NCBI GenBank assembly: GCA_020349885.1
Contig: CP070701.1
Location: forward strand, 907,880-971,879
From: Acidobacteriota bacterium
Lineage (GTDB): Bacteria > Acidobacteriota > G020349885
Length of the DNA: 64,000 nt
Direction: 5' to 3'
The notes beneath the pieces were generated by a model, which had not been told where the DNA came from, ran no database searches, and saw only the letters and a list, made by a program, of their open reading frames with translations. The translations under genes were made by a program, and so were the position numbers. Each line of letters starts with the position of its first letter. The stretch's first letter is position 1. Positions 18,823 to 58,378 of the stretch are shown here, piece by piece.

Positions 18823-21480
<2,658 letters not shown>

Positions 21481-33502: not shown

Positions 33503-33533
33503 ACGGTGAATGCTCTTTCTGTTGTTCGAAGGG

Positions 33534-33615
33534 TGCGAAAGGGGGGATTTGAACCCCCACCCCCGAAGGGACGGGATCCTAAGTCCCGCGCGTCTGCCAG
33601 TTCCGCCACTTTCGC
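33534..33615 (-). tRNA. tRNA-Leu (anticodon TAG)
   Basis: Hand-folded. Acceptor stem GCGAAAG/CTTTCGC, discriminator A, anticodon loop CTTAGGA, 13-nt variable arm, T-loop GGTTCAAATCC. CCA is not encoded. Confidence 0.85.
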
Positions 33616-33690
33616 CCGGGAAATCTTTCCGCCGCCCGCATCTCCTTCCGTACGGTTTCCATACGGGTTCCGTACGGCCTCCATACGGGA

Positions 33691-33763
33691 TGAGCCGCGC
33701 AGGAGTCGAACCTGCAACCTACGGATTAAGAGTCCGTTGCTCTGCCAGTTGAGCTAGCGGCCC
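33691..33763 (-). tRNA. tRNA-Lys (anticodon CTT)
   Basis: Hand-folded. GGGCCGC acceptor stem with one G-U pair, anticodon loop CTCTTAA, T-arm GCAGGTTCGACTCCTGC. Close to E. coli tRNA-Lys. Confidence 0.85.
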
Positions 33764-33973
33764 AAGTGTTGAAAGCAACTGAAAACAAAGGATATCTCAA
33801 CCGATGTATAATTTCGCTTTACCAGTTTCAACCGTTTTTCAGCCGCCGCTTCGGACTTTCCGCCTTCTTCCTCGGCTATCAGCCCTATTGTGCCATGGGG
33901 CTTTTGGGGCTGCAAGTGGGCGTAGATTTACGTCGTCGTAGCGTGGCCATGGCCGCGCGGTGGATGTACGCAC

Positions 33974-35542
33974 CTAGTGAAGCCGCTCCAGCTCCCGCCC
34001 GGCGCTCTGGTATTCGGGTATTATCGTTGCGTTGGTCGCGAGGCATTTTTCAAAAAGCTCGCGGGCCTTCTTCTCCCGTTCCGGCAGGGGCGCATCGCTT
34101 GGCTCCCCCGTGCCCAGCAAATGCGCCATACCCATGTAGTAATACGCTTCGCATTTTCGCCGTCGATCGGTTTCCTCGTCGTCGCTTTCCGTCGCTTCGA
34201 GAACCTTCTCCTCAGTGATTTCCCCGATGTAGAAGCGCGCAAGAGGCGCGGGCCATCCGGCGTCTTCGGGTGTTTTTCCCCAGTTACTCACGTGCGCTCG
34301 AGCTTCTTCCTCCCTGCCCGTTTCGAAGACGGCAAGGGAGTAGGCAAGCTGGACATAGACGTCATCATATTCGACATCCACGGCCGTGCGGTATTCGGCG
34401 CTTTCGGGATCCCAAAGGACGGGTGCCTGGAATTCTTGGATGGCTTCCCAGTATTTCTCCTGGTGGTAGTAAACCCACGCCAGGCCGCTGTGCGCATTGG
34501 CGTGTTCCGGTTCGAGTCTGATAGCTTTCTGGAACTCCGAGATGGCCGCCCCAAACTCGCTCTGGTCCGCGTACACCCACCCCAGGCTGTTGTGTGGGTC
34601 CGGGTTTTCCGGCTCCAAGGCGACGGCTTTCCACAACTCGGCAGTCGCCTCCTCGTAGCGGCCCTGCATATGGTAAATGTCGCCCATGCCGTTGTGTGCC
34701 TCGATGTCATCCGGGTCGAGCTCGGCGGCTTCCTGAAATTTCACCAGCGCCTCCTCGTACCTTCCCTGGCCGTAGTAAACCCACCCGAGGTCGCTCAGCA
34801 GCACGGCGTCTTCGGGCCTGAGGTGGCCGTACCGCTCGTCGCTGACCAGCGCGAGGGATTTTTCAAATAAATCCTCCGCCTCCTCCCAGTTTTCCAGAAT
34901 GTAGTAAACGTTGCCCTGCCAGCGAAGGCTCTCCGCGGTGGGGGGGTCGATTTTCTGAAGCAGGCGAAGCGCCTTGTCGGGCATGTCTTGGTAGTAAGCC
35001 GCCGCCACAAGGAGTGCCACGTTGCGAAGCTCGTCCACTTCGGTTTTTTCCACCCCCCCCTGCTCGGGCGAGGCGAAAAGCACCTCTACGGAGCGCTCCT
35101 TTTCCCGGAACCACCGAAGGGGCGTCAAGGTTGTGAGGTAGGGCCGAATTTCCATGCTTTCCTGAAACATGAACACGTGCCCCCAGACGACAATGTCCGC
35201 CTGGAGTGCTTCGCCCAGGGTTTCCGCCTCCTCCTCGGTGCGGGGAGGTTCGTCAGCATCTTCCGCCGCTGAAATCGTTACGCCTTCCTCGGCCCCCAGC
35301 TCCTCGCGAAGCGTCTTCTCCGCCATGCGCTGCATGGCCCGGCCCTTTTCCATGGCCGTCTCGTCCGGTCCCCAGAACGGTGCCACCGCGATGACGAATT
35401 TTTCTTCTTCCCTCTCCACTTCCGTCCTCTCTTCCAACGGGAGAGGGAAAAGGGGGGCGAGGGCCTTCCACGCCCACCATGCCGCCGCTGCGGCTATGAT
35501 GAGTATAAAGACAATTACCGTCCAGAGGGTTTTCTTATTCAT
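33974..35542 (-). CDS. Membrane-anchored TPR family protein, paralog 1 of the tandem array
   Basis: N-terminal K-rich TM anchor (KKTLWTVIVFILIIAAAAAWWAWK). Conserved ~150-aa domain (FVIAVAPFWGPDE...ADIVVWGHVF...ELRNVALLVAAAYYQ). TPR repeats. Conserved C-terminus QKCEAYYYMG...FEKCLATNAT. Confidence 0.8.
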   Translation of the reverse strand: MNKKTLWTVIVFILIIAAAAAWWAWKALAPLFPLPLEERTEVEREEEKFVIAVAPFWGPDETAMEKGRAMQRMAEKTLREELGAEEGVTISAAEDADEPPRTEEEAETLGEALQADIVVWGHVFMFQESMEIRPYLTTLTPLRWFREKERSVEVLFASPEQGGVEKTEVDELRNVALLVAAAYYQDMPDKALRLLQKIDPPTAESLRWQGNVYYILENWEEAEDLFEKSLALVSDERYGHLRPEDAVLLSDLGWVYYGQGRYEEALVKFQEAAELDPDDIEAHNGMGDIYHMQGRYEEATAELWKAVALEPENPDPHNSLGWVYADQSEFGAAISEFQKAIRLEPEHANAHSGLAWVYYHQEKYWEAIQEFQAPVLWDPESAEYRTAVDVEYDDVYVQLAYSLAVFETGREEEARAHVSNWGKTPEDAGWPAPLARFYIGEITEEKVLEATESDDEETDRRRKCEAYYYMGMAHLLGTGEPSDAPLPEREKKARELFEKCLATNATIIPEYQSAGRELERLH

Positions 35543-35560
35543 GAATCACGATTTCTTTTT

Positions 35561-37123
35561 TTAAAGCTGCTTCAGCTCCCGCTCGGCGCTCCGGTATTCG
35601 GGCGTTATCGTTGCACCGGTCGAGAGGCATTTCTCAAAATACCCGCGGGCCTTCTTCTCCCGTTCCGGCAGGGGCGCATCGCTCGGTGCCCCTGCACCCA
35701 GCAAATGCGCCGTTCCCATGTAGTAATACGCCTCGCATTTTTGCCGGCGGCCGATTTCCTCGTCGTCGCTTTCCGCCGCTTCGAGGACTTTTTCTTCCGC
35801 GGCTTCTCCGGCGTAGAAGCGCGCAATGGGTGCGGGCCATTCGGCTTCCGCTATGCCTTTGTACATTCTTGCCACTTCTTTCATGTGCGCTCGAGCTTCT
35901 TCCTCCCTGCCCGTTTTGAGGAGGGCAAGAGAGTAGGCAAATCCGAGGTAGACGTCCCCATATACGGCCTCAATGGCCGTGCGATGTTCGGCGCCTGCGG
36001 GATCTACAACGGGCGTCTCAAACTCCGCGACAGCCTTCTCGTATTCCCCCTGGTGGTAGTAAACCCACGCCAAGCCGGTGTGCGCATCGGCGTGTTTCGG
36101 GTCGAACTCGACGACTTTCCGGAACTCCGAGATGGCCGCCCCAAATTCGCTCTGGTCGCAGTACACCCATCCCAAGCTGTTGTGGGGTTCGGGGTTTTCC
36201 GGCTCCAGGGCGATGGCTTTCCACAGCTCGGCAGCCGCCTCCTTGTAGCGGCGCTGGATATAGTAAATGTCGCCCATGCCGTTGTGTGCCTCGATGTCCT
36301 CCGGGTCGAGCTCGACGGCTTCCTGAAATTTCGCCAGCGCCTCCTCGTATTTCCCCTCGTAGTAGTAAACCCACCCGAAGTCGCTCAAGAGCGCGGCGTC
36401 TTCGGGCCTGAGGTGACCGTACCGCTCGTCATTGACCAGCGCAAGGGATTTTTCAAACAAGCCCTCCGCCTCTTCCCAGTTTTCCAAGATGTAGTAAATG
36501 TTGCCCTGCCAGTGCAGGCTATCCGCGGTGGGGGGCTCGATTTTCTGAAGGAGGCGAAGCGCCTTGTCGGGCATGTCCTGGTAGTAAGCGGCCGCCACAA
36601 GTAGCGCCACGTTGCGAAGCTCGTCCACTTCGGTTTTTTTCACCCCTCCCTCCTCGGGCGGGGCGAAGAGCACCTCTACGGAGCGTTCCTTTTCCCGGAG
36701 CCAGCGAAAGGGTGCCAGGGTCGTGAAGTAGGGCCGAATCTCCATGCCTTCCTGAAACAAGAACACGTGCCCCCAGACGACAATGTCCGCCTGGAGCGCT
36801 TCGCCGAAATTTCTCGCTTCCTCCTCGGTGCGGGGAGGCTCCTCAGCTTCTTCCGCCAGAATCGCCACGCCTTCCTCGGCCCCCAACTCCTCGCGAAGCG
36901 TTTTCTCCGCCAGGCGCTGCACGGCCCGGCCCTCTTCCACGGCTTTCGCGTCCGACCCCCAGAACGGCGCCACCGCGATGACGAAGTGCTCTTCCTGGTC
37001 TTGCAGGGACAAAGCGTCACCCGGGGCGACCCCGCAGATACCCCCGCATTTCCACACCCACCATGCCGCCGCCGCGGCGATGACGAGAATGACGATCGCT
37101 ACCCAGAGGATTTTCTTATTCAT
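35561..37123 (-). CDS. Membrane-anchored TPR family protein, paralog 2
   Basis: Same architecture. Start placed at ATG 37123 (MNKKILWVAIVILVIAAAAAWW). Confidence 0.8.
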   Translation of the reverse strand: MNKKILWVAIVILVIAAAAAWWVWKCGGICGVAPGDALSLQDQEEHFVIAVAPFWGSDAKAVEEGRAVQRLAEKTLREELGAEEGVAILAEEAEEPPRTEEEARNFGEALQADIVVWGHVFLFQEGMEIRPYFTTLAPFRWLREKERSVEVLFAPPEEGGVKKTEVDELRNVALLVAAAYYQDMPDKALRLLQKIEPPTADSLHWQGNIYYILENWEEAEGLFEKSLALVNDERYGHLRPEDAALLSDFGWVYYYEGKYEEALAKFQEAVELDPEDIEAHNGMGDIYYIQRRYKEAAAELWKAIALEPENPEPHNSLGWVYCDQSEFGAAISEFRKVVEFDPKHADAHTGLAWVYYHQGEYEKAVAEFETPVVDPAGAEHRTAIEAVYGDVYLGFAYSLALLKTGREEEARAHMKEVARMYKGIAEAEWPAPIARFYAGEAAEEKVLEAAESDDEEIGRRQKCEAYYYMGTAHLLGAGAPSDAPLPEREKKARGYFEKCLSTGATITPEYRSAERELKQL

Positions 37124-37143
37124 TGAGTCGCGATTTCTTTTTT

Positions 37144-38712
37144 TTAAAGCTGCTTCAGCTCCCGCTCGGCGCTCCGGTATTCGGGTACTGTTGTTGCGCC
37201 GGTCGCGAGGCATTTTTCAAAATGCTCGCGGGCTTTTTTCTCCCGTTCCGGCTGGGACGCATCGCGCTGCGCCCCAACGCCCAGCAAATGCGTCATCCCC
37301 ATGTAATAATACGCCTCGCATTTTTGCTCTTGTTCGAGTTCTTCGTCGTCGGCCTCCGCCGCTTTGAGGACATCTCCCTCCGTGATTTCCCCCAAGTAGA
37401 AGAACGCAAGGGGCGCGGCCCACCCGGGCTTCTCGTCGCCTCTGAACAACTTTGCCAATTCTTTTATAGGCGTCTGAGCTTCCTCACCCCGCCCCGCTCT
37501 GTGGAGGGCGAGGGAGTAAGCAAGCTGGATGTAGACGTCGCTGTACTCGGATTTGATGGCCGGATTTTCGTTGCCCGTTGCGAGATCTACAACGGGCATC
37601 TCAAACTCCGCGACGGCTTTCTCGTATTCCCCCTCGTGGTAGTGCAGCCATCCCACGGCGTTGCGCACCTCGGCGTAATGCGGGTCGAGCGTGATGACTT
37701 TCTGAAACGCCGCAAGCGCCTTCTCGTACTCGTATTTTTCCCCGTAGCAGTACGTCCACCCCAGGCCGTCGTGCGCGTCGGAGTTGCCCGGGTCGAGCTC
37801 AGCGGCTTTCTGGAATTCCGCACGTGCTTCCTCGTATTTCACCTGCTCTAAGCGAACCCATCCCAGGTCGGCGTACAGCATCGAGTCCTTCGGGTCGAGC
37901 GTGAGGGACTCCGGAGGCTCCGCGGGCGCCTCCCCGGCCGCAACGGTCTCGCGCCCCTCCCCAAGCTTGGGCTTGAGGCGCTCGTACCGCTCGCGGCGGG
38001 CCTGCGCGATGGCTCTTAAGTACAAATCCGCCGCCTCTTCCTGTTTGCTCAGCATGTAGTAGATGTTGCCCTGCCAGCGCAGGCTCTCCACGGTGGGGGG
38101 ATCGATTTTCTCGAGCAGGCGGAGCGCCTTGTCGGGCTCGCCCTGGTAATAGACGGCCGCCACAACGAGCGCCACGTTGCGAAGCTCGGCCACTTTGGTT
38201 TTTTGCATCTCCTCCTGCTCGGGCAGGGTGAAAAACGCTCCCATGGATTGCTCCTCTTTCCGAATCCAGCGAAGGGACGTCAGGGTCGTGAAGTAGGGCC
38301 GGATCTCCAAGCCTTCCTGAAACACGAACACCTGCCCCCAGATGACGATGTCCGCATGGTGCGCTTCACCGAGGGTTTTCGCCTCCTCGTCGGTGCGGGG
38401 AGGCTCTTCGATCCCTTCCGTTAAAATCGTCACGCTTTCCTCGGCCTCCAGCTCCTCTCGAAGCGCATCCCCCGTCAGGCGTTGCATGGAGCGGCCTTCT
38501 TCATCGGCCTTCGGGTCCGACGCCCAGAACGGCGCCACCGCGATGATGAATTGTCCTTCCATGTCTTGCAGGGACGAAGCGTCGCTCAGGCCGAGCTTGC
38601 AGGTCCCCCCGCATTTCCACAACCACCATGCTGCCGCCGCGGCGATGACGAGAATGACAATCGCCGCCCAGAGAATTTTTTTTCGTTGTGACCGTCCTTG
38701 CGTTTTACTCAT
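37144..38712 (-). CDS. Membrane-anchored TPR family protein, paralog 3
   Basis: Same architecture (RKKILWAAIVILVIAAAAAWW). Confidence 0.8.
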   Translation of the reverse strand: MSKTQGRSQRKKILWAAIVILVIAAAAAWWLWKCGGTCKLGLSDASSLQDMEGQFIIAVAPFWASDPKADEEGRSMQRLTGDALREELEAEESVTILTEGIEEPPRTDEEAKTLGEAHHADIVIWGQVFVFQEGLEIRPYFTTLTSLRWIRKEEQSMGAFFTLPEQEEMQKTKVAELRNVALVVAAVYYQGEPDKALRLLEKIDPPTVESLRWQGNIYYMLSKQEEAADLYLRAIAQARRERYERLKPKLGEGRETVAAGEAPAEPPESLTLDPKDSMLYADLGWVRLEQVKYEEARAEFQKAAELDPGNSDAHDGLGWTYCYGEKYEYEKALAAFQKVITLDPHYAEVRNAVGWLHYHEGEYEKAVAEFEMPVVDLATGNENPAIKSEYSDVYIQLAYSLALHRAGRGEEAQTPIKELAKLFRGDEKPGWAAPLAFFYLGEITEGDVLKAAEADDEELEQEQKCEAYYYMGMTHLLGVGAQRDASQPEREKKAREHFEKCLATGATTVPEYRSAERELKQL

Positions 38713-38802
38713 GGATTTACCTTTCAGGCGAGCCGTAGAACGCCGGGGGCGGAAGTCCGAAGCCGCTGAACGGGCCGCAAGAGGCGAGGCCGGTGCGGTT
38801 TC

Positions 38803-40275
38803 CTAAGCTCCTCCTTGAAGCTGCTCAAGCTCCCGCTCGGCGCTCCGGTATTCGGGCAGGTCTGTTGCATCGGTCGCGAGGCTCTTTTCGAGGTATTCGC
38901 GGACTGTTTCCTGCCGATTCCGTTGGGGGGCGCCGCCGGACGGCCCCACGCCCAGCGCATACGCCATCCCCATGTAATAATACGCCTCGCATATTTGCTC
39001 TCGCTCAAGTGTCTCGTCGTCGACCTTCGCCGCTTCGAGAACCTCTTCTTCCGTGATTTCCCCGAGGTAGAAGAGCACAAGGGGCGCGGGCCATTCGGCT
39101 TCCGCTATGCCTTTGTACATTCTTGCCGCCTCTTCCATGTGCGCTTGAGCTTCTTCCCCCCGGCCCGTTTTGAGGAGGGCGAGGGAGCAGGCAAGCTGGA
39201 CGTAGACGTCGTCGTAATCGACTTCTACGGCCTTGCGATATTCGGCGCCCGTGGCATCTGTGATGGTCGTCTGAAACTCGCCGACGGCCTCCTCGTATCT
39301 CCCCTCGTGGTAGTAAACCCACCCGAGGCCGTTGTGCACCTCGGCGTTGTTCGGATCGAGCTCGACGGCCTTCTGGAACTCCGCAACCGCCTCATCATAG
39401 TCTTCGTCGAAGTAGTAAAGCCACCCCATACCGCTGAGCGCTTCGACGTGTTCCGGGTCGAGCTCGAGGGACTTCTGGAACTTCGCACGCGCCTCCTCGT
39501 ATTTTGCCTGCTCAAAGTAAAGCCACGCGAGGTCGCTCAGGAGTATGGCGTCCTCGGGCCTGAGGTGGCCGAACCGCTCTTCCCGGGCCAGCGCGAGGGC
39601 TTCTTCCGCCAAACTTTCCGCCTTTTCCCATTTCTTCAGAATGTAGTATACGTTGGCTTGCCAGCGCAGGCTCTCCGCGGTGGGGGGATCGATTTTCTGA
39701 AGCAGTCGAAGCGCCTTGTCGGGTTCGTTCTGGTAATACACCGCCGCCACGAGGATCGCCACGTTGCGAAGCTCGTCCACTTCGGTCTTTTTCATCCCTC
39801 CCTCATCGGGCGGGGCGAAGAGCACTTCCATGGAGCGTTCTTTTTCCCGAAGCCAGCGAAGGGGCGTCAGGGCCGTGAAGTAGGGCCGTATCTCCATGGC
39901 TTCCTGAAACACGAACACGTGCCCCCAGACGACGATGTCCGCCTGGAGCGCCGCGCCGAACTTTTTCGCTTCCTCGTCGGTGCGTGGAGGTTTTTTCACC
40001 TCTTCCGCCAGAATCGCCACGCCTTCCTCTGTCCCCAGCTCCTCGCGAAGCGTCTTCTCCGCCAGGCGCTGCACGGCCAAGCCCTCCTCAACGGCCTTCG
40101 CGTCCGACCCCCAGAACGGCGCCACCGCGATGACGAAGTGCTCTTCCTGGTCTTGCAGGGCCGAAGCGTCGCTCAGGCCGAGCTTGCATGCCCCCCCGCA
40201 TTTCCACACCCACCATGCTGCCGCGGCGGCGATGACGAGAAGGACAATCACCGCCCAGAGGATTTTCTTTTTCAT
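38803..40275 (-). CDS. Membrane-anchored TPR family protein, paralog 4
   Basis: Same architecture (MKKKILWAVIVLLVIAAAAAWW). Confidence 0.8.
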   Translation of the reverse strand: MKKKILWAVIVLLVIAAAAAWWVWKCGGACKLGLSDASALQDQEEHFVIAVAPFWGSDAKAVEEGLAVQRLAEKTLREELGTEEGVAILAEEVKKPPRTDEEAKKFGAALQADIVVWGHVFVFQEAMEIRPYFTALTPLRWLREKERSMEVLFAPPDEGGMKKTEVDELRNVAILVAAVYYQNEPDKALRLLQKIDPPTAESLRWQANVYYILKKWEKAESLAEEALALAREERFGHLRPEDAILLSDLAWLYFEQAKYEEARAKFQKSLELDPEHVEALSGMGWLYYFDEDYDEAVAEFQKAVELDPNNAEVHNGLGWVYYHEGRYEEAVGEFQTTITDATGAEYRKAVEVDYDDVYVQLACSLALLKTGRGEEAQAHMEEAARMYKGIAEAEWPAPLVLFYLGEITEEEVLEAAKVDDETLEREQICEAYYYMGMAYALGVGPSGGAPQRNRQETVREYLEKSLATDATDLPEYRSAERELEQLQGGA

Positions 40276-40298
40276 AAGCCGCTAATTCCTTTATTTTC

Positions 40299-41846
40299 TT
40301 AAAGTTGCTTCAACTCGCGTTTGGCGCTCCGGTATTCCGGTACGGTCGTTGTGCCGATCGCGAGGCATTTCTCAAAATACCCGCGGGCTTTTTTCTTCCG
40401 TTCCGGCTGAGGCGCTTCGCTCTGCGCCCCTACGCCCAGCAAATGTGCCATCCCCATGTAATAATACGCCTCGCATTTTTGCTCTTGTTCGAGCGTCTCG
40501 TCGTCGCTCTTTGTCGCTTCGAGAACATCTTCCTCCGTGATTTCCCCGAGATAGAAGAACGCAAGGGGCGCGGCCCATCCGGGCTCCTCGTCGCCTCTGA
40601 ACACCTTGACCAATTCTTTTATAGGCGTTTGAGCTTCTTCCCCCCGGCCCGCTCTGTGAAGGGCGAAGGCGTAAGCAAGCTGGATGTAGACGTCGCTGTA
40701 CTCGGACTGGACGGCCGGGTATTCGGCGCCCGTCGCGGGATCCGCAACGGGTGTCTCAAACTCCGCGACGGCTTTCTCGCATCCCCCCTCGTGATAGTGC
40801 ACCCATCCCATGCCGCAGTGCACCTCGCCGGTGTACTGCGGGTCGAGATCGACGGCTTTCTGAAACGCCGCAAGCGCCTTCTCGTAGTCGTACTCTTCCC
40901 CGTAGCAGTACGTCCACCCTAGGCCGTCTTGTGCGTCGGCGTTGTTCGGGTCGAGCGCGGCGGCTTTCTGGAACTCCGCGAGCGCTTTCTCGTATTTTGC
41001 CTGCTCGCTGTAGACCCATCCCAGGTCGGCGTACAGCATGGAGTCCATCGGGTCGAGCGCGAGGGACTCCGGAACCTCCGCGGGCGCCTCCCCGGTCGTC
41101 CCCGCAAGCTTGGGTTTGAGGCGCTCGTACCGCTCGCGGCGGGCCTGCGCGATGGCTTTCTGGTACAAATCCGCTGCCGCCTCATGTTTGTTCAGCATGT
41201 AGTGGATATTTCCCTGCCACCGCAGGCTCTCCACGGTGGGAGGGGCGATTTTCTGAAGCAGGCGAAGCGCTTTGTCGGGCTCGCCCTGGTAATAGACGGC
41301 CGCCACAAGGAGCGCCACGTTGCGAAGCTCATCCACTTTGGCTTTTTGCTTATCCCGCTGCTCGGGCAGTGTGAAGAACGCCCCCATGGAGTGCTCCTCT
41401 TCCCGAATCCAGCGAAGGGACGTCAGGGTCGTGAAGTAGGGCCGAATCTCCATGCCCTCCTGAAACACGAACACGTGCCCCCAGATGACGATGTCCGCCT
41501 GAAACGCCTTGCCGATGATTTTCGCCTCCTCGTCGGTGCGGGGAGATCTGCCGATCCCTTCCACCAAAACCGTCACGCCTTCCTCGGCCTCCAGCTCCTT
41601 GCGAAGTATCTCCCCCGTCAGGCGCTGCATGGTCCGGCCCTCTCTTATGGCTTTCGCGTCCGACGCCCAGAACGGCGCCACCGCGATGATGAATTGCTCT
41701 TGCAGGAACGCAGCGTCGCCCGGTGCGACCCCGCAGGTCCCCCTGCATTTCCACGCCCACCATGCCGCCGCCGCGGCGATGACGAGAAGGACAATCAACA
41801 CCCAGAGGAATTTCTTTCGTCGCGGACGCTGTTGCGTTTCGCTCAT
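40299..41846 (-). CDS. Membrane-anchored TPR family protein, paralog 5
   Basis: Same architecture. Start placed at ATG 41846 (MSETQQRPRRKKFLWVLIVLLVIAAAAAWW). The 773-aa track ORF is a stop-free upstream extension. Confidence 0.75.
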   Translation of the reverse strand: MSETQQRPRRKKFLWVLIVLLVIAAAAAWWAWKCRGTCGVAPGDAAFLQEQFIIAVAPFWASDAKAIREGRTMQRLTGEILRKELEAEEGVTVLVEGIGRSPRTDEEAKIIGKAFQADIVIWGHVFVFQEGMEIRPYFTTLTSLRWIREEEHSMGAFFTLPEQRDKQKAKVDELRNVALLVAAVYYQGEPDKALRLLQKIAPPTVESLRWQGNIHYMLNKHEAAADLYQKAIAQARRERYERLKPKLAGTTGEAPAEVPESLALDPMDSMLYADLGWVYSEQAKYEKALAEFQKAAALDPNNADAQDGLGWTYCYGEEYDYEKALAAFQKAVDLDPQYTGEVHCGMGWVHYHEGGCEKAVAEFETPVADPATGAEYPAVQSEYSDVYIQLAYAFALHRAGRGEEAQTPIKELVKVFRGDEEPGWAAPLAFFYLGEITEEDVLEATKSDDETLEQEQKCEAYYYMGMAHLLGVGAQSEAPQPERKKKARGYFEKCLAIGTTTVPEYRSAKRELKQL

Positions 41847-42189
41847 GGTTTGGCCCTCATGAGGATACCATGAAACCGTTAGTAAAATGCAAATTTTTTT
41901 CTTGACTTCCGCTTTTTTTTTTGGTAAGGTTTTCTGCTTCAGTGCATCGCAGAAAAAGCTGCGGCCTACCAAATCGCCCGCCCGGGCGGGGTGGTGGCTT
42001 TGGAAAGTCGGCCTCCGAATTGAGAGGAACTCGATTGCCTGCGGGGTGTTGAAGAAAATTGCTTGAACACGTGGAAAAACTACGCCGTGGTGCGCTCGCC
42101 CGCAGGGTGGACGCACACGTTCGTCAGAGGGTTCCAGAAGTCCGTCGGGGCGGCGGGACCGTCTGGAAGGCGAAAAAACGAGAGGCAAC

Positions 42190-42855
42190 ATGTTCAGGAA
42201 AACGATCGCTCTGGCGTTGTGCATGACGCTCGCAACGGTGGTGTTTCCGGCCCCAAGTCCGCAGCAACCCGCCGGGGAGGAGTCGTCCACGGAGCCGGCC
42301 CCAAGTCCGCAGCAACCCGCCGGGGAGGAGTCGTCCACGGAGCTGGCCCCAAGTCCACAGCAACCCGCCGAGGGGGAGTCGTCTACGGAGCCGGCCACGG
42401 AGCGGGAGAGCGAAACACCGGAAGCGCAACCCAAGGCGCCGCCTAAACGGCGGGCGGCGGTGGCCATTGTGGTGAATAAGAAAAACCCGGTGAGCGATAT
42501 TTCCCTGGCAAAGCTCAAGGACATCTTTCTCGGCGTCCAGCAGTCTTGGAATGGCGGCGACCGAATTGTCACCGTCGGCCGCGAGGAAGGCTCCAAGGAG
42601 AGGGAAATCGTTCTCGACAAAATTTACAACATGTCCGGAACACAGCTAAAGCAGTACTGGACGGCGAAGGTCATCCGCGGGAACAACGTCAATCCGCCGA
42701 AAACCTTCCCTTCGGACGTGCTGATCAAGCAGCTTGTCCAGCGCGTTCCCAACGCCGTCGGGTACATTCGTGCCGACCAGGCGGACGACTCGGTGAAAGT
42801 TCTCAAGGTCGAGGGGAAGGAACCCGGACAAGCGGGCTATCCCGTAGCCCGGTAA
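42190..42855 (+). CDS. Secreted PBP-like (phosphate-binding-protein fold) protein with N-terminal PSPQQPAGEESSTE repeats
   Basis: Signal peptide. Three 16-aa repeats. The PBP-like domain matches the PstS/PhoT-type pattern (VGYIRADQADDSVKVLKVEG). Confidence 0.65.
   Translation: MFRKTIALALCMTLATVVFPAPSPQQPAGEESSTEPAPSPQQPAGEESSTELAPSPQQPAEGESSTEPATERESETPEAQPKAPPKRRAAVAIVVNKKNPVSDISLAKLKDIFLGVQQSWNGGDRIVTVGREEGSKEREIVLDKIYNMSGTQLKQYWTAKVIRGNNVNPPKTFPSDVLIKQLVQRVPNAVGYIRADQADDSVKVLKVEGKEPGQAGYPVAR
42250..42393 (+). repeat. 3 x 48-nt in-frame tandem repeat within the PBP-like gene
   Basis: The unit gccccaagtccgcagcaacccgccggggaggagtcgtccacggagccg repeats at 42250, 42298 and 42346. The third copy is diverged. 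Confidence 0.8.
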
Positions 42856-42861
42856 GCCTGC

Positions 42862-44298
42862 ATGAACATCAAGGCGAAGCTTTTTGCGGTCTTTGCCGCT
42901 ATTGCTTTAATGCTGTGCGTCAACATCGGCGTCCATTTCTGGAGCGTCGGCCAGCGAAGAGTTGCTTTCACGAAGCTCGACAAGGCGCTGCAGCGGGAAG
43001 ACCTTCTAAGGCAGGCCGAGCACAATCTCCAGAACCAGGTCAAGGAGATCGCTTTGCTGGGGGAGATGAGCCTCACCGCAAGCGGCGAGTCTCTCGGGGA
43101 AAGCCCCATCGAGCGCCTGGATTACCAGGATAAGCTGTCGGGGCTTGCCGACCAGCTGATTTCGTTGAGCGAGGGTGAATCCGCGGCAAGGGCTTTCGCG
43201 CTTCAGGGCGACATCGCCACTCTTTCCACCGCGTGGGCCCAGTTTTACCAGCACATTTACAGCGATCCCGTGCAGGCCATCGCGGTGCTCGCCCTCGAGG
43301 CGGAGCCTTTGAGCGAGCGCCTGAGCGAGCAGTTCCTTCCCGCTTGGAAGGAGCATGAGACGCAAACTGTCGGGGAGGCGAAACAGAAAACCGAGGCGGT
43401 GAATCGCATGACTGGGCGAATGGCGACCGCCGCCTTCATCGCCACCGCCATCCTGGTGGTGGGAGTGGCCGTTTTTTCGTTTCGCGCCCAGGACGATCTG
43501 TCCCGCAAAACGCAGGCGTTGTTAGCAGCGGAAAAAACGGCGGCACATCAAAAAGCGGAATTGGAAACCGCCGAGCACATTCAAATGGTTATGCTGCCCG
43601 CGTCCGTGACGATACCGGGCTACGACCTCTCGGCTATGATGAAGCCCGCGAGCGAGGTCGGGGGAGACTTTTTCGACTTTCACAAGGACCCCCACAATAA
43701 AACCTGGATCAGCATCGGGGACGTGACCGGCCACGGCCTGACGTCCGGCCTCGTGATGATGATTACCCAGACGGTTTTCGAGACCGTCGTTGGCATGTCC
43801 AAAAACGGAAACAGCCCCAAGGACACCATCCTGACCCTCAACCGCATGCTTTACGGCTACATTCACCAGCGGCTGAACATCGACAAGCACATCACGGCCA
43901 TGATCCTGCGGGAGGAAGGGGACGGGAATTTCACCTACTCGGGGTCTCACGAGGAAATTCTAATCTATCGGAACGCCTCCCAAACCGTTGAGCGCATAGA
44001 GACGCCCGGTGGCTGGCTGGGTGTCTTTCACGACATCGGCTACTGCACCCGGGAAAGGACGTTCCGACTAAACAAAGGCGACATCCTGCTGCTCTACACG
44101 GACGGCATCACCGAGGCGCGAAACGCCGAAGGCCGGGTCTTCGGCCTGGATAACCTGTCCAGCAACCTCAAGCGAAACCGTGACCTGCCCGCGGAGCGAA
44201 TTATCGCCGGTCTCATGGAGACCGTGGATTCGTGGGCCGAAGAACAGCACGACGACCGAACCTGCATAGTCATGAAAAAGGAAGAGAGTTCATTATGA
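42862..44298 (+). CDS. Membrane sensor PP2C-family Ser/Thr phosphatase (SiaA/RsbU-like)
   Basis: TM1, ~150-aa periplasmic segment, TM2, coiled coil, then a SpoIIE/PP2C domain (EVGGDFFDF, GDVTGHGLTSG, LYTDGITEARN). Confidence 0.8.
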   Translation: MNIKAKLFAVFAAIALMLCVNIGVHFWSVGQRRVAFTKLDKALQREDLLRQAEHNLQNQVKEIALLGEMSLTASGESLGESPIERLDYQDKLSGLADQLISLSEGESAARAFALQGDIATLSTAWAQFYQHIYSDPVQAIAVLALEAEPLSERLSEQFLPAWKEHETQTVGEAKQKTEAVNRMTGRMATAAFIATAILVVGVAVFSFRAQDDLSRKTQALLAAEKTAAHQKAELETAEHIQMVMLPASVTIPGYDLSAMMKPASEVGGDFFDFHKDPHNKTWISIGDVTGHGLTSGLVMMITQTVFETVVGMSKNGNSPKDTILTLNRMLYGYIHQRLNIDKHITAMILREEGDGNFTYSGSHEEILIYRNASQTVERIETPGGWLGVFHDIGYCTRERTFRLNKGDILLLYTDGITEARNAEGRVFGLDNLSSNLKRNRDLPAERIIAGLMETVDSWAEEQHDDRTCIVMKKEESSL

Positions 44299-44777
44299 CT
44301 ATCCACACCCGCTCCAAGCCGGGCTACATCGAAGTCAAATTCCAGCCCGAATGGATCTACATCAGCTGCATCCAAACCTTTGTGATGGCCTTTTTCGCCG
44401 TGAGCTGCGTCGAGCCTCTCGCGGCCCAGAGAATCGCTCTGATTATCACCGAGCTCCTAGAAAACGCCATCAAATATTCAAGCGGCCGCCAGGCCCTGAC
44501 CCGCATCGCCGTCGAAGACAGCGGGAACCAGGTCAAGGCGCAGGTGAGCAATACGGCCAGCGAGGAGAACATTACCGAGCTGAAAAGGACGATCGAGGAC
44601 ATCAACAAGTATTCTCCTCAAGAAGCGTATCTCAAAAGGCTGGAAAAGGCCGCTACGCGAACGGACGAAAAAAGCCAGGTGGGGCTGGCAAGGGTTCGCT
44701 TTGAAGGACGGGCCGACCTTCAGTTGAACATCGAAGGGAGCGAAGTCTCCATGACGGCACTATATAAACTGGATTGA
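44295..44777 (+). CDS. HATPase-type Ser/Thr kinase (SiaB/RsbW-like anti-sigma-factor-type kinase)
   Basis: 160 aa. ITELLENAIKYS N-box. ATGA overlap with the phosphatase gene. Confidence 0.7.
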   Translation: MTIHTRSKPGYIEVKFQPEWIYISCIQTFVMAFFAVSCVEPLAAQRIALIITELLENAIKYSSGRQALTRIAVEDSGNQVKAQVSNTASEENITELKRTIEDINKYSPQEAYLKRLEKAATRTDEKSQVGLARVRFEGRADLQLNIEGSEVSMTALYKLD

Positions 44778-44796
44778 CGGAAGCAAAGGAAACGCC

Positions 44797-45171
44797 ATGT
44801 ACGAGATACCGACGTTGGAGACGAAAACGGTAAAGGTCGAGACGCAGGTGGGCAAGGACAGCCTGCTCATCCGCGTCGTCGGAGCCATCACCGAGCAGGA
44901 GCCCGGCAAGACATTAAACCCCTATTTCGGGTCCCTCCATGAGGCGATCCAGGCAAGGGGCCTGAATACGGTGAAGCTGGACCTCAGGCAATTGACGCTT
45001 GTGAATTCTTCCGGGATTGTGTGCATCCTGAGGTGGGTCAAGCGCGTACAGCAATCCACGGAAAAACGCTATCCCATCATCATCCGCTACGATCCGGAGA
45101 TTCTGTGGCAGAGAATCAGTTTGAAAAGCCTGCAGATGATGGCTCCGGACGTGGTTCAGGTGATGGAGTAG
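44797..45171 (+). CDS. DUF1987 / SiaC-like partner-switching target protein
   Basis: 124 aa. Paralog of 1204..1593. Follows the kinase after a 19-nt gap. Confidence 0.7.
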   Translation: MYEIPTLETKTVKVETQVGKDSLLIRVVGAITEQEPGKTLNPYFGSLHEAIQARGLNTVKLDLRQLTLVNSSGIVCILRWVKRVQQSTEKRYPIIIRYDPEILWQRISLKSLQMMAPDVVQVME

Positions 45172-45239
45172 GGCGCGTTGCGCAAGAAAAGCGCCCCGGA
45201 ACACGCTTTCCCCGGTTGGAACGGAGGCCCGGCCGCGCG

Positions 45240-46025
45240 GTGAACGAAACCCTTAAGCGCCTCGTCCGCATGCAGGAGGTCCACTCGGCGCGCGAGGAAA
45301 CGGTCGAAGACCTTGCCATGCTCCCCGAGCGCAGAGACGTCCTTCAAGAGGAAAGCGAGGCGTTCCAGGCGAACCTGTCGGCGCTTTCGGACCGCATCGC
45401 CTCACTACGCAGTACGATTCGCTCGCTCAAGGGTGACCTGGAAAAACTCAAGGAGAAGAGAGACGGTTTCGAGTCACGGTTTTTAGAGATGGAAACGAGC
45501 GCGGCCTACGGAGCGCTTCTTCCCGAGATCGAAGACGTCGAGAGGGAGATAAGGAAAACAGAGGACCAGATTATTCAACAGAAGCATGCGGAGGAGGATG
45601 CTCACAGGGAGGTGGAAGCGCAGGAACGCAAGAAGCCCGCGCTCAAGCGTCGCATAGAGGAAGAGCAGAAGGAGCTTGATGAGATGGAGCGGGAGCTCTC
45701 CGCGCGCCACGGCGAGCTCGAAGCGCGTTGGGCCGAGGAAAGCGAGGCGCTCGACGGGAAAATGCTTGAAGTTTTCATGCGCTTGGTCAAAAACCAAGAC
45801 GGCGTCGCCGTCGCGCGCATCAAGAGCGTCTGCGAGGCCTGCGGCGCGCGCGTGAGCGAGCAGCGCGTGCAGGGAGTGCGCGAGGGCGAGGAGGTGCTTC
45901 AGTGCGAGAATTGCGGCCGCATCCTCTACTGTGAAGAGGCCGAGCCGGAAACCCCCGCGGCTCACGCGGACGGCCGGGAAGCGCGAGAGAACGCACGGGC
46001 GAATCCTTCGCCCCCGTCGTCGTAA
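45240..46025 (+). CDS. Coiled-coil protein with C-terminal C4 zinc ribbon (COG1579-like)
   Basis: GTG start. Long coiled coil, then CEACGARV...CENCGRILYC. Confidence 0.7.
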   Translation: MNETLKRLVRMQEVHSAREETVEDLAMLPERRDVLQEESEAFQANLSALSDRIASLRSTIRSLKGDLEKLKEKRDGFESRFLEMETSAAYGALLPEIEDVEREIRKTEDQIIQQKHAEEDAHREVEAQERKKPALKRRIEEEQKELDEMERELSARHGELEARWAEESEALDGKMLEVFMRLVKNQDGVAVARIKSVCEACGARVSEQRVQGVREGEEVLQCENCGRILYCEEAEPETPAAHADGREARENARANPSPPSS

Positions 46026-46102: not shown

Positions 46103-47482
46103 TTAAACCTTCTTCTCCTTCCATTTCCCGCGCTGGAACCAGAGCGGCAACAGGGTTCCGTTCAACACCATCGTCAAGGCGATGGCCCACCAGATGCCCG
46201 TGGCCGAGCCGAAGAAATCCGGCCTCGACAGGAGGTAGGCCAGGGGAATCTTGGCAAAAAACAAGGGCACGCTGATGAGCATGGGGGGTATCGTGTTGCC
46301 CGCGCCGATGAACGCGGATTCGATGACCATGTCGAAGGCGGAGAACACCTGCGGGATTGCGACGATGCGCAGGTAGATGGTGCCGGCCTTGATGATGGCG
46401 GGGTCGTCGGTGAAAATCCGCATCAGGAACGCGGGAAAGAGAAGGAACATTCCCCCCATAAAGGCCGAAACGTACGCGGCGTAGCGCATGCTCCGCCATG
46501 CGCATGCCTCGGCGCGGTCGGGGTTTCCGGCGCCTAGGTTCTGGCCGACGAGCGTCGCCGCCGCTTCCCCGAAGCCCACGCCGGTGAAGTAGGTGACCGA
46601 TTCGAGCTTGTGCCCTATCCCGAGCGCCGCCATGGCGGGCACGCCGAACTGCGTCGTGATGCGCGTTAGCCACATGTAAACGAAGCAGAAGAAGGTGCCC
46701 GAAGCGGAGGCCGGCAAGCCGATTTTGAGGAGTTTTTTGTAGATTCCTGTGTCTGGGATGAATCTTGAGAGCACGGGAGGCGCCGTGCGTCCGTACATGA
46801 AGGAGGGAAGGTACACAAACGCGATTACGAGTCCCACGGCGCCCGAGAAGATGGTCGCAATCGCCGCTCCGGCGACGCCCATCTCCGGAAACCCGAGCCA
46901 CCCGAAAATCAGCAGGGGGTCGAGCACGGCATTGAGGACGAGCGAAAAGATGAGGATGTACATGGGCGTCTTCGCGTCGCCCGAGCCCATGAAAACGGCC
47001 TCCATGGCGTTCACCACGAAGAACACCGGAAGCCCGAATAAAATAATCGTCAGGTAGGAAAGGCCGAATTCCGTAACTTGGGGCGGCGTTTGCATAAAGC
47101 GGAAAATTCCCTTGAGCGCAAGGAGGAACGCGCCCCCCACTACGAGCGACGCGACGAGCGAGAACCCTATGCCCTGCCATCCCTGGTAGGCGGCGCGCGT
47201 GATGTCGCCTTCGCCCACCCGGCGCGCTACGAGCGCCAGCACGCCCGTTTCCACGACCTCCCCAAGCGAGAGAACCAACCAAAAGACGAAGCTCGAGACG
47301 CTCACCGCCGCGATGGCTTCGCCGCCGAGCCGTCCTATCCAGATCATGTCCACTATTTCGAAGGCCGAATGCACAAGGAGGCCCGCCGTGGTGGGAATCG
47401 CGAGCGAGAAGATGCCCCGCCGGATGCTTCCTTCGGTGAGCAGTTTCCTGCGGGAGGCTACTGGCTGTCGAGTGTCTTGCAT
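46103..47482 (-). CDS. MATE family efflux transporter, copy 1
   Basis: 459 aa, 12 TM segments. Typical MATE N-terminus (RRKLLTEGSIRRGIFSLAIPT). Confidence 0.85.
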   Translation of the reverse strand: MQDTRQPVASRRKLLTEGSIRRGIFSLAIPTTAGLLVHSAFEIVDMIWIGRLGGEAIAAVSVSSFVFWLVLSLGEVVETGVLALVARRVGEGDITRAAYQGWQGIGFSLVASLVVGGAFLLALKGIFRFMQTPPQVTEFGLSYLTIILFGLPVFFVVNAMEAVFMGSGDAKTPMYILIFSLVLNAVLDPLLIFGWLGFPEMGVAGAAIATIFSGAVGLVIAFVYLPSFMYGRTAPPVLSRFIPDTGIYKKLLKIGLPASASGTFFCFVYMWLTRITTQFGVPAMAALGIGHKLESVTYFTGVGFGEAAATLVGQNLGAGNPDRAEACAWRSMRYAAYVSAFMGGMFLLFPAFLMRIFTDDPAIIKAGTIYLRIVAIPQVFSAFDMVIESAFIGAGNTIPPMLISVPLFFAKIPLAYLLSRPDFFGSATGIWWAIALTMVLNGTLLPLWFQRGKWKEKKV

Positions 47483-47527: not shown

Positions 47528-48907
47528 TTAAACCCTCTTCTCCTTCCATTTCCCACGCTGGAACCAGAGCGGCATCAGGATTCCGTTCGCCACTATCGTC
47601 GAGGCGATGCCCCACCAGATGCCCGTGGCCGAGCCAAAGAAAGCCGGCCTCGACAGGACGTACGCGAGGGGAATCTTGCAAAAAAACAGGGGTATGTTGA
47701 TGAGCATGGGTGGGATCGTGTTGCCCGCGCCGACGAACGCCGATTCGAAGACGATCTCGGAGGCGGCGAACACCTGCGGGACCGCAATGATGCGAAGGTA
47801 GAGGGCTCCGGCCTCGATGATGGCGGGATCGTCGGTGAAAATCCGCATCAGGTAAGTGGGAAAGAGAAGGAACAACCCCCCCATGAAGGCCGAAACGTAC
47901 GCGGCGTAGCGCGCGCTCCGCCATGCGCATTTCTCGGCGCGGTCGGGGTTTTGCGCGCCGAGGTTCTGCCCGACGAGCGTCGCCGCCGCTTCCCCGAATC
48001 CCACGCTCGTGAAGTAGGAGACCGACTCGAGCTTGTGCCCGATCCCGAGCGCCGCCATGGCGGGCACGCCGAACTGCGTCGTGATGCGCGTGAGACACAC
48101 GTACACGAAGCAGAAGAAGGTGTGCGAAGAGGAAGCCGGCACGCCGATTTGGAGGATTCTTTTATAGACCCTTGCGTCGGGGATGATTCTCGAAAGCAAG
48201 GGAGGCGCCGTGCGTCCGTACATGAAGGAGGGAAGGTACAGGAACGCGACAATGAGTCCCACGGCGCTCGAGAAGACGGTCGCAATCGCCGCTCCGGCGA
48301 CGCCCAACTCCGGAAACCCGAGCCACCCGAAAATCAGCAGGGGATCGAGCGCGGCGTTCAGGACGAGCGAGAAGATGGCAATGCACATTGGCGTCTTCGC
48401 GTCGCCCGAAGCCTTGAACACGGCGTCCAGAACGTAAAACACGAACAACACCGGAAGCCCGTACAGAACGATCGTCAGGTAGGAAATGCCGAGCTCCGTG
48501 ACTTCGGACGGCGTTTGCATAAAGCGGAAAACGCTCTTGAGCCCGAGGAGAAACGCGAGCCCCACGACGAGCGACGCGACGATCGAGAACCCTATGCCTT
48601 GCCACGCCTGGTAGGCGGCGCGCGAGGTGTCGCCCTCGCCCACCCGGCGCGCCACGAGCGCCAGCACGCCGAAAACCACGCCCTCCGAAAGCGAGAAAAG
48701 CATCCAAATGATGAAGCTCGAGACGCTCACCGCCGCGATGGCCTCGCCGCCGAGCCGCCCTATCCAGATCATGTCCACCATCTCGAAAGCCGAATGCACA
48801 AGGAGGGCCGCCGTCGTGGGAATTGCAAGCGAGAAGATGCCCCGCGGGATGCTTCCTTCGGTGAGGAGCTTCCTGCGGGAAGCCGTCGGCTGTAGAGAGT
48901 CTTGCAT
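47528..48907 (-). CDS. MATE family efflux transporter, copy 2 (tandem duplicate)
   Basis: 459 aa. About 75% identical to copy 1 over the full length. Confidence 0.85.
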   Translation of the reverse strand: MQDSLQPTASRRKLLTEGSIPRGIFSLAIPTTAALLVHSAFEMVDMIWIGRLGGEAIAAVSVSSFIIWMLFSLSEGVVFGVLALVARRVGEGDTSRAAYQAWQGIGFSIVASLVVGLAFLLGLKSVFRFMQTPSEVTELGISYLTIVLYGLPVLFVFYVLDAVFKASGDAKTPMCIAIFSLVLNAALDPLLIFGWLGFPELGVAGAAIATVFSSAVGLIVAFLYLPSFMYGRTAPPLLSRIIPDARVYKRILQIGVPASSSHTFFCFVYVCLTRITTQFGVPAMAALGIGHKLESVSYFTSVGFGEAAATLVGQNLGAQNPDRAEKCAWRSARYAAYVSAFMGGLFLLFPTYLMRIFTDDPAIIEAGALYLRIIAVPQVFAASEIVFESAFVGAGNTIPPMLINIPLFFCKIPLAYVLSRPAFFGSATGIWWGIASTIVANGILMPLWFQRGKWKEKRV

Positions 48908-57475: not shown

Positions 57476-58378
57476 ATGTTCAGCGACCATTTTTGGCTGG
57501 AGACCACGTTTCTCGCGTTTTTCCTCTACGGAATTGGTCAGGGACTGCTCAAGCAGTACGTCGGGGACGTATCGGCCTATCGTTTCTGCCTGTACGCCGT
57601 GCCGACGTACTTCCTGGCGGACGCGGTTTTTTATTTGTTATATATGCCCTCACCCAACCCGTTTGCCGCCGAGGGGCGCCAGTTTATGTATTACGCGCTG
57701 ACGCTCTGCCTCCTGGAGGGCGTGGCCTATGTCTGTTATTACGAGTCCATTGCGGGCGGCCTCATCAGCATTGTCGGGACGGTTTCCGCCGCCTATCCGG
57801 CCGTGACCGTCGTGTATGCCTATTTTATTTTGGACGAAACCTTGTCCACCAAACAATACATCGGGGTCTTTATGGTGATCGCCGGGTGCATCGGCATCGC
57901 GTACGAGCCTTCCGACCCAGACCAAAAGGTCTCGAAGCGCCGAGTTCTGGGAATGCCGGTATGGTTCTTACAGGCCCTGATTGCCGCGCTCGGATGGGGG
58001 ATCGGGGCAGGGATGACGAGATACGCCTTCGAGTATACGGAAAATGCGAGCGAGGGCAATATGGCGTTGTTCGGTTTCATCGGCTATTGCCTCCCGCTGG
58101 CCGTGTATGGCGCGTACAAGGAAAAGGATTGGAAATTCCCGAAAAGGCAGATGGCGCTCGCCTTTACGCCCCTGATGATGATAGCCATCGGCGACGTGAT
58201 ACTCATCATTTCCTACAAATATGGCCTGGCTTCTATCGTGACGCCTGTGTCGGGCGCGTATCCGGCGCTGACGATAGTGTATGCGTTCTTCGTTCTCAAG
58301 GAGAAGCTCACGCCCCTTCAGTGGGTGTTCGTCACGATAATTTTCGTCGGCATGCTCATGGCCCCGGGCGCGGAATAG
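57476..58378 (+). CDS. DMT superfamily (EamA-like) transporter, paralog 1
   Basis: 300 aa, 10 TM segments. Two-fold internal repeat with GGLISIVGTVSAAYPAVTVV and ASIVTPVSGAYPALTIVYAFF. Confidence 0.75.
   Translation: MFSDHFWLETTFLAFFLYGIGQGLLKQYVGDVSAYRFCLYAVPTYFLADAVFYLLYMPSPNPFAAEGRQFMYYALTLCLLEGVAYVCYYESIAGGLISIVGTVSAAYPAVTVVYAYFILDETLSTKQYIGVFMVIAGCIGIAYEPSDPDQKVSKRRVLGMPVWFLQALIAALGWGIGAGMTRYAFEYTENASEGNMALFGFIGYCLPLAVYGAYKEKDWKFPKRQMALAFTPLMMIAIGDVILIISYKYGLASIVTPVSGAYPALTIVYAFFVLKEKLTPLQWVFVTIIFVGMLMAPGAE

Follow-up and report, generated by a model that had tools for sequence, protein, structure and literature searches.

We report here that six paralogous membrane-anchored tetratricopeptide-repeat (TPR) proteins of an Acidobacteriota bacterium share their soluble part with the ectodomains of transmembrane receptor kinases and cyclases of uncultured bacteria, and carry no kinase or cyclase domain of their own. 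The genes, denoted g1-g6, lie in a stretch of 64,000 nucleotides (GenBank assembly GCA_020349885.1, contig CP070701.1, positions 907,880 to 971,879 of the forward strand), which is called the window below and whose own numbering is used throughout; five of them form a tandem array at 33974-41846 and the sixth stands apart. Our favoured reading, which we hold to be probable and still some way from certain, is that the six proteins are extracytoplasmic copies of the input part of a receptor, lacking any output domain, and that they would act by binding alone, as tethered periplasmic scaffolds or receptors.

Six paralogs of one architecture

All genes of the array are read from the minus strand. 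The first is g5 (40299-41846, 515 residues), followed by g4 (38803-40275, 490 residues), which has the smallest repeat count and a Ser at the second C-terminal Cys position, then by g3 (37144-38712, 522 residues) and g2 (35561-37123, 520 residues), and the array ends with g1 (33974-35542, 522 residues), in which a transmembrane (TM) anchor, an α/β N-terminal domain (hereafter the N-domain), the TPRs and an NlpI-like cap follow one another. The successive spacers measure 23, 90, 20 and 18 nucleotides, in agreement with an earlier sequence-only reading of this DNA, which had described five co-directional genes with spacers of 18-90 nucleotides. The dispersed sixth paralog, g6 (60793-62223, plus strand, 476 residues), is located between two DMT genes.

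As the open reading frame (ORF) listing and its translations reveal, the six frames are intact, code for 476-522 residues and are 49-78% identical in pairs; when they are aligned together over the full length, the mean column identity is 68% and the other members are 55-75% identical to g1. Moreover, hidden Markov models (HMMs) of the N-domain and of the C-terminal 155 residues, searched against the six-frame translation of the 64-kb window, match exactly g1-g6 (E 1e-70 to 1e-97) and no seventh copy. The alignment and the two models together confirm what had been proposed earlier, namely a sixth paralog at 60793 and an architecture common to all copies.

In this window of 62% GC, the starts were taken as the ATGs directly ahead of the Lys/Arg-rich segment. 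For g2 the likely start is the ATG at 37123, which is preferred because the longer ORF, running to 37213, overlaps g3. An extension of the g5 ORF to 42620 was rejected as a high-GC artefact, the g5 ortholog on a related metagenome contig (L003, described below) being called at 515 residues. An exact-sequence look-up of the g4 protein returned no database record. Besides the six genes, antisense ORFs of up to 495 residues (for example 38815-40302, plus strand) shadow each paralog in 33974-41846, and plus-strand terminator-like hairpins are repeated inside the array genes; both arise as by-products of repeated, GC-rich coding sequence and are not genes.

The same module in receptor kinases and cyclases

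A word-indexed search of 5.8 billion proteins with the N-domain profile returned one fragment only (P0001), and with a deeper profile it returned nothing. Because such an index is too insensitive here, an exhaustive HMMER search was needed, and 1.84 billion cluster-representative proteins were searched with the N-domain profile. It revealed 186 relatives at E<=1e-3, of which 127 reach E<=1e-10. In most of them the N-domain starts at residue ~320-370 of a protein of 800-1380 residues, with a hydrophobic TM-like segment directly ahead of it, and in the long relatives Pfam detects an N-terminal Hanks-type Pkinase domain and then TPRs; the Hanks catalytic-loop motif stands upstream of the N-domain in 96 of the 151 representatives retrieved. 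A second class, of 635-666 residues, has an N-terminal Guanylate_cyc domain (class III adenylate/guanylate cyclase) followed by a TM helix, the N-domain, TPRs and the cap. Since the cap profile also matches the very C-terminal end of about 45 relatives (E 1e-11 to 1e-38), the N-domain, the TPRs and the cap have been inherited as one unit. The combination by which we recognise the receptor-ectodomain family, that is an N-domain and a cap behind a TM segment, is found in g1-g6 and in these ~45 database relatives, and judging from domain order and homology it appears to serve two kinds of membrane-spanning signalling enzyme as their input part outside the cytoplasm.

As for the window proteins, scans with Pfam and NCBIfam found neither Pkinase nor Guanylate_cyc N-terminal to the TM segment of g1-g6, and an HMM scan of the 64-kb window found no kinase or cyclase bearing this ectodomain. 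Kinase-less forms are a minority among the relatives as well, and comprise the g3 ortholog on L003 (P0002), a protein of 519 residues (P0003) and P0025; a further one, P0013 on L005, is probably kinase-less too, as a stop ~200 nucleotides upstream of its N-domain leaves too little room, in an upstream region that is partly masked.

The relatives that were looked up are all singletons from metagenomes or metagenome-assembled genomes (MAGs) of uncultured bacteria, for example Zixibacteria and WOR-3, and the only names they carry are 'protein kinase' (UCD64164.1, Candidatus Zixiibacteriota; MEO0294288.1, candidate division WOR-3) and 'TPR repeat protein'. The closest kinase relative is ~40% identical in the N-domain. 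A contig search of GTDB representative genomes with the family profile found no relative, a genome-contig search with a profile made from kinase-type sequences gave three MAG loci, and a metagenome-contig scan added only one further kinase relative and one marginal match. Around these loci, a DUF1287 gene adjoins the stand-alone P0003 (L002 1704-2354) and lies ~4 kb from the kinase relative P0007 (L009 13861-15504), two cases which may be chance; a sulfatase gene is located ~5 kb upstream of P0007.

Membrane anchor and topology

One strongly hydrophobic segment per protein, 19-22 residues long, lies at the N-terminus of g1-g6, with only 4-12 residues ahead of it, including 2-5 Lys/Arg, and with an acidic stretch behind it; the soluble portion is strongly acidic overall. 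In g1 the TM anchor lies at 35465-35527 (minus strand, ~residues 6-26), after the sequence MNKKT, where the Kyte-Doolittle maximum is 2.33 and the AlphaFold2 (AF2) model has a helix at residues 3-31. Judged by eye, there is no lipobox in g1-g6: the segment is followed by WK(C/A), in which 'VWKC' misfits the pattern [LVI][ASTVI][GAS]C, and the Cys at this position is absent in g1 and g6.

From the Lys-rich N-terminus it had earlier been proposed that the N-terminus faces inwards and that the TPR part is extracytoplasmic, and this proposal has been strengthened by the relatives, in which the same module comes after a TM helix that is itself preceded by a kinase or cyclase domain in the cytoplasm. 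Because kinase and cyclase domains must be cytoplasmic and the module comes after the TM helix, the module lies outside the cytoplasm in those enzymes. The six window proteins have the same polarity (Lys/Arg-rich segment, TM, module), and homology of this kind fixes the topology better than charge counting does. An N-in topology with the ectodomain outside is therefore strongly inferred for g1-g6.

Directly after the TM segment, at residues ~26-38, g2-g5 carry a juxtamembrane Cys pair CGGxC (CRGTC in g5; at 40186-40200 in g4, for example), which P0002 shares and which g1, g6 and the kinase relatives lack. The two Cys might form a disulfide or bind a metal.

The N-terminal α/β domain

In g1 the α/β N-domain occupies 35081-35398 (minus strand, residues 49-154). 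The AF2 model of the N-domain (predicted local distance difference test, pLDDT, 78.7; predicted template modelling score, pTM, 0.77) has the order β-α-β-α-β-β(-β), then helices, so the alternating β/α character expected from the sequence alone is what the model gives; the full-length g1 model has a pLDDT of 77.9. A conserved domain of ~150 residues had been delimited earlier, and the domain itself is real, with the qualification that only ~105 residues make up the α/β part and the last ~45 are helical and TPR-like. In 65 columns of the N-domain all six copies have the same residue. The residues that come close to invariance in the family, PFW, PR[ST], WG and EI.P[YH], look structural, and the domain has no conserved His/Asp/Cys constellation that would hint at catalysis.

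At the level of sequence the N-domain stands alone. Pfam gave nothing at E<=0.1 with the six proteins and no consistent family at E<=1 with 24 diverse members; NCBIfam gave only TPR-type models; and N-domain profiles built from 6 and from 24 sequences found nothing among the PDB sequences below E 0.4. For TolB_N (PF04052) in particular, there was no HMM match at E<=0.1 with the six proteins or at E<=1 with the 24 family N-domains. At the level of structure, the model is closest to TolB-N and to the related anticodon-binding-like α/β fold, with 9-17% sequence identity; because anticodon-binding domains of class II aminoacyl-tRNA synthetases score nearly as well as TolB-N, this match is read at fold level only. 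The N-domain is a new sequence family within a known fold class, and one which recurrently serves protein-protein contacts in the cell envelope. The sequence-only reading had placed it outside all named families, and had named assignment to a well-characterised family as what would overturn that view. The outcome lies halfway: no Pfam, NCBIfam or PDB sequence claims the domain as a member, and its fold, being TolB-N-like, is known.

The TPR region and the C-terminal cap

The TPR solenoid of g1 lies at 34436-35053 (minus strand, ~residues 164-369; Pfam TPR_2, E 6e-31) and the NlpI-like C-terminal cap at 33977-34435 (minus strand, ~residues 370-522). TPR profile HMMs assign all six proteins to the TPR superfamily, and the Pfam matches on g1-g6 are to TPR families only, at about residues 185-390. 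The consensus of the cap reads W.AP...FY.GEI.E...L.....DDE....KCEAYYYMG...F.KCLAT....PEY.SA.REL. This motif, taken earlier to be invariant, is conserved in fact and falls short of invariance, with a mean column identity of 73% and the second Cys replaced by Ser in g4.

Neither is the cap an unknown element. When the profile of the C-terminal 155 residues was searched against all PDB sequences, the four significant matches were all E. coli NlpI (1xnf, 5wql, 6iqq, 8xud; E 7e-5 to 9e-5), the next match being at E 0.3, and the stretch aligned was the NlpI C-terminal cap (W..IVEFYLGNISE...D....E..FYLG). Moreover, the NCBIfam NlpI model is the top match of g6, where it covers residues 262-473 with profile positions 87-283 of 297 (E 5e-22), and for g1 and g4 it is among the five best matches, with E values of 5e-22 to 6e-16 overall; these alignments extend to profile position 281-285 of 297, that is, through the C-terminus. 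On these profile matches the C-terminal motif is an NlpI-type C-terminal TPR cap.

The cap also brings in another reading of the family, in which the paralogs are NlpI-like adaptors, each tethering to the inner membrane either a protease of the periplasm or an enzyme that hydrolyses or synthesises peptidoglycan, and presenting different substrates to it, as NlpI does for Prc and MepS. The exclusive PDB match, the rank of the NlpI model in g6, g1 and g4, and the fold of the N-domain, which is common to LpoB and TolB-N and so to interaction domains of envelope machinery, would all agree with it. However, the bit scores of 58.9 (g1), 65.5 (g4) and 78.7 (g6) miss the 250-bit cut-off of the NlpI equivalog NF008391 widely, the anchor is a TM helix in place of a lipobox, no prc, mepS or other cell-wall gene adjoins the array, and the structure does not single out NlpI among TPR proteins. 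In addition, the use of the same module as signalling input in kinases and cyclases points to sensing and not to proteolytic targeting. We regard adaptors of the NlpI kind as distinctly unlikely. A further candidate, the TPR proteins of anti-phage defence, was rejected, as PADLOC gave weak generic TPR models only (E 3e-7 to 5e-4) and none for g5.

Evolution of the array

Two loci of closely related genomes are available for comparison. The first, L003, is a Joint Genome Institute (JGI) metagenome contig of 8.5 kb, ~91% identical in nucleotides to the window and collinear with it at 36798-45368; it holds at least four array copies, at which point the contig ends, together with the same divergent neighbour cassette. 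The second, L001, comes from a similar relative and covers its g6 locus, in which g6 stands between two DMT genes, at 91.6% nucleotide identity across the locus. The ~91% relative is represented in the JGI samples 3300041077 and 3300041085. The g6 ortholog on L001 (423-1853) is interrupted by a stop that follows codon 186, the remainder being called as a separate gene of 236 residues, which indicates either a pseudogene or an assembly error.

Between orthologs, the ratio of nonsynonymous to synonymous substitution rates (dN/dS) is 0.47 for g5, 0.30 for g4 and 0.37 for g3, compared with 0.19-0.27 for four neighbouring genes; between paralogs it is 0.42-0.66 overall, and the sole value above 1 comes from one comparison of 42 codons in the TM/linker part. 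Judged by these ratios, g1-g6 are under purifying selection, somewhat relaxed, and the label 'diversifying' that had been attached to the expansion fits neither the paralogs nor the orthologs. The GC content at third codon positions (GC3) is 0.73-0.77 in g1-g6 versus 0.85-0.89 in housekeeping genes.

A dN/dS somewhat above that of the neighbours, the interrupted g6 ortholog and the lower GC3 are what one might also expect if the six genes were decaying remnants, that is, non-functional leftovers of duplicated receptor genes after the loss of the kinase. However, each of the six frames is uninterrupted and properly started, dN/dS stays far under 1 in all domains save the short TM/linker comparison, the 65 invariant N-domain columns have been kept, and the genes start cleanly at the Lys/Arg-rich segment and the TM with no kinase remnants upstream. 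Decay is thus very improbable in our view, and g1-g6 are treated in what follows as output-less copies that are maintained as proteins.

The conservation is unevenly distributed along the proteins. Among the tandem copies, identity is 42-76% in the central TPRs, 61-86% in the N-domain and 55-82% in the cap, so that conservation is lowest in the central TPRs, where whole repeats of 34 residues have been gained or lost. An insert of 26 residues rich in Pro, Glu and Ala is common to g3 and g5. Furthermore, which paralog is nearest depends on the position within a gene: g3 is most similar to g4 at its 5' end (91%) and to g5 over the remainder, and for g4 the nearest paralog shifts from g3 to g2 and then to g1. 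Such a mosaic of nearest paralogs is what gene conversion among neighbouring copies leaves behind. Local duplication gave rise to the array, and its five members continue to convert one another.

Operon structure and genomic context

No minus-strand terminator-like site was found in any spacer between the five array genes, which fits one operon, and the five genes are probably co-transcribed. The 343 nucleotides between g5 and the divergent PBP_like_2 gene (41847-42189) presumably hold the array promoter; a scan for σ70-consensus sites returned none in the array region including this interval. On the other side of it, at 42190-45171 (plus strand), NCBIfam identifies a PstS-like PBP_like_2 protein, a membrane SpoIIE/PP2C phosphatase, an slr1658-like protein and an slr1659-like STAS protein, which look like a partner-switching cassette with periplasmic input. 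The phosphatase has two TM segments and a periplasmic loop. The PBP_like_2 protein (42190-42855, plus strand) has three tandem units of ~17 residues after its signal peptide (PSPQQPAGEESSTE[PL]A), and its gene is called 18 residues longer on L003, so the repeat number may vary. The order of the cassette is kept beside the array on L003. The relation between cassette and array is one of divergent adjacency, kept on that contig, and is listed here as context only.

It is with this neighbourhood in mind that a co-receptor or decoy role should be weighed, in which the ectodomains of g1-g6 would pair, through the TM helix or the ectodomain itself, with a full-length receptor (a kinase or cyclase of this family elsewhere in the genome, or the adjacent membrane SpoIIE phosphatase, which is the most obvious candidate) and tune its response. 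Homology with the ectodomains of receptor kinases and cyclases is in its favour, and so are the arrangement of the array divergently from the PBP_like_2/SpoIIE/slr1658/slr1659 cassette and the occurrence of kinase-less forms in other uncultured bacteria (P0003, P0025 and probably P0013). Nevertheless, there is no kinase or cyclase with this ectodomain in the window, even the nearest kinase relative shares only ~40% identity over the N-domain, and g6 and P0003 are found in unrelated contexts; as L003 is only ~9% diverged, its shared synteny says little on function. We consider this role rather unlikely, and keep binding alone as the preferred reading of g1-g6.

Downstream, the array is followed by tRNA-Lys(CTT) at 33688-33764 and tRNA-Leu(TAG) at 33532-33615 (both on the minus strand, between trigger factor and g1), then by trigger factor and ClpP, and farther away by alanyl-tRNA synthetase (AlaRS), phosphoenolpyruvate carboxylase and others, that is, by an ordinary chromosomal setting. 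AlaRS (18823-21480, minus strand) has one relative of 93% identity in 5.8 billion proteins, and its next-best relatives, at 53% identity, belong to Acidobacteriota, Desulfuromonadales, NC10 and Nitrospirota; an AlaRS with a single near relative suggests that the window comes from a deep and barely sampled lineage. No tol or pal gene was found among the ~20 of ~50 gene calls of the window that were scanned with Pfam and NCBIfam.

The DMT genes flank g6 closely, one 41 nucleotides after it and one 176 nucleotides before it, and the arrangement is kept on L001. The earlier description of g6 as co-operonic with a DMT transporter is accordingly sound as regards adjacency, and plausible as regards the operon. 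In fact there are four paralogous DMT/EamA genes on the plus strand, at 57476-58378, 59709-60617, 62264-63175 and ~63300-64000, of which the last runs off the end of the window and is visible only as an open frame (MLLFEPWFGLSLIAVFSYGISDGVYKQF...); g6 is inserted between the second and the third, and the set is a second local expansion of a gene family. Elsewhere, two ORFs of 459 residues lie 45 nucleotides apart on the minus strand (46103-47482 and 47528-48907), the first of which Pfam assigns to the MatE efflux proteins (E 5e-52), and a tandem MatE pair is suspected. At 2883-4871 (plus strand) a protein of 662 residues has a sulfatase domain fused to C-terminal TPRs.

Proposed mode of action

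From these results the following picture may be drawn. The six proteins would be type II (N-in) membrane-anchored, with the soluble part facing the periplasm or the cell exterior, and this part would be a three-piece module of a ~105-residue TolB-N-like α/β domain, a run of TPRs and an NlpI-type cap. With the TM helix and the ectodomain kept and the cytoplasmic output domain missing, the window proteins most likely work by binding alone. In the division of labour that we infer from the pattern of conservation, the conserved N-domain and cap would make contacts common to all copies, either by self-association or with one shared partner, and the variable groove of the central TPRs would let the paralogs differ in the protein or peptide that each takes as client.

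Several points weigh against this picture and should be kept in view. The topology is based on the positive-inside rule and on homology. The AF2 models were built from an alignment of six sequences, and the g1 loop 127-167 is poorly predicted in the full-length model. The gene neighbourhoods of three kinase relatives share nothing, so no partner can be proposed. Finally, no family member is known to have a ligand, a partner or a phenotype.

A bolder version of the picture may also be considered, in which the TolB-N-like, TPR and NlpI-cap module would be a so far unrecognised, self-contained receptor unit outside the cytoplasm that is plugged onto kinases, onto cyclases or onto nothing, and in which g1-g6 of this deep-branching lineage would form a combinatorial co-receptor/decoy set, hetero-oligomerising with each other or with a signalling protein such as the SpoIIE phosphatase and thereby setting the specificity of envelope signalling. 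We think it improbable that the set works in this way; if it were true, the array would be a bacterial counterpart of the receptor/decoy-receptor families.

What is new here should be separated from what is not. The TPRs, the NlpI-type cap and the TolB-N-like fold are all of kinds already known, and what we describe offers neither a novel fold or repeat type nor a new system whose partners could be identified, while the function is put forward as a proposal. The 'novel envelope system' suggested earlier is likewise not indicated, since the genes are ectodomain copies of a receptor kinase/cyclase family and have no conserved partner genes. New are the unannotated N-domain family, the occurrence of the three parts as one recurrent receptor ectodomain in uncultured phyla, and the output-less form amplified six-fold. 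A family without Pfam or NCBIfam entry, which provides the input module of about 190 clusters of receptor kinases and cyclases in uncultured phyla such as Zixibacteria and WOR-3, now has a fold assignment and domain boundaries, and the existence of its module without an output domain bears on the question of how receptor ectodomains evolve as independent units. Moreover, the stand-alone forms are natural soluble-domain constructs with which the ligand of the receptor family could be sought.

Comparison with known systems

The N-domain of g1-g6 resembles the TolB N-domain, LpoB, PelC and HpaA at fold level only. In g1-g6 it is followed by TPRs, whereas TolB-N is followed by a six-bladed β-propeller and is encoded in the tol-pal operon; as mentioned above, class II anticodon-binding domains score almost as well against the N-domain model.

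The transmembrane class III cyclases of 635-666 residues share the N-domain, the TPRs and the C-terminal cap with g1-g6, which lack the cyclase domain. COG5616, 'TolB amino-terminal domain', presumably covers the segment that joins the TM helix to the TPRs in cyclases of this type. A literature search on COG5616, or on TolB-like domains combined with TPRs and a kinase, found nothing relevant.

NlpI of E. coli is an outer-membrane TPR lipoprotein and an adaptor of Prc and MepS, a role that has been documented (PMC5686067, PMC11211486). It has in common with g1-g6 the TPR body and the cap motif W..FYLG.I.E...D....E..FY.G... and differs in that it has ~294 residues, resides in the outer membrane and has no α/β domain, whereas g1-g6 would be anchored in the inner membrane by a TM helix and are 180-230 residues longer.

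Among receptor kinases, PknS of Xanthomonas citri has a periplasmic TPR region which is required for signalling (PMC13147305). The likeness to PknS is one of kind, that of a periplasmic TPR kinase. The likeness to the kinases from MAGs (UCD64164.1, MEO0294288.1) extends to sequence, as they have the same N-domain, TPRs and cap after the TM segment, with E values of 1e-20 to 1e-38 for the N-domain and down to 1e-38 for the cap; compared with these transmembrane Hanks kinases, the window proteins are without the kinase domain.

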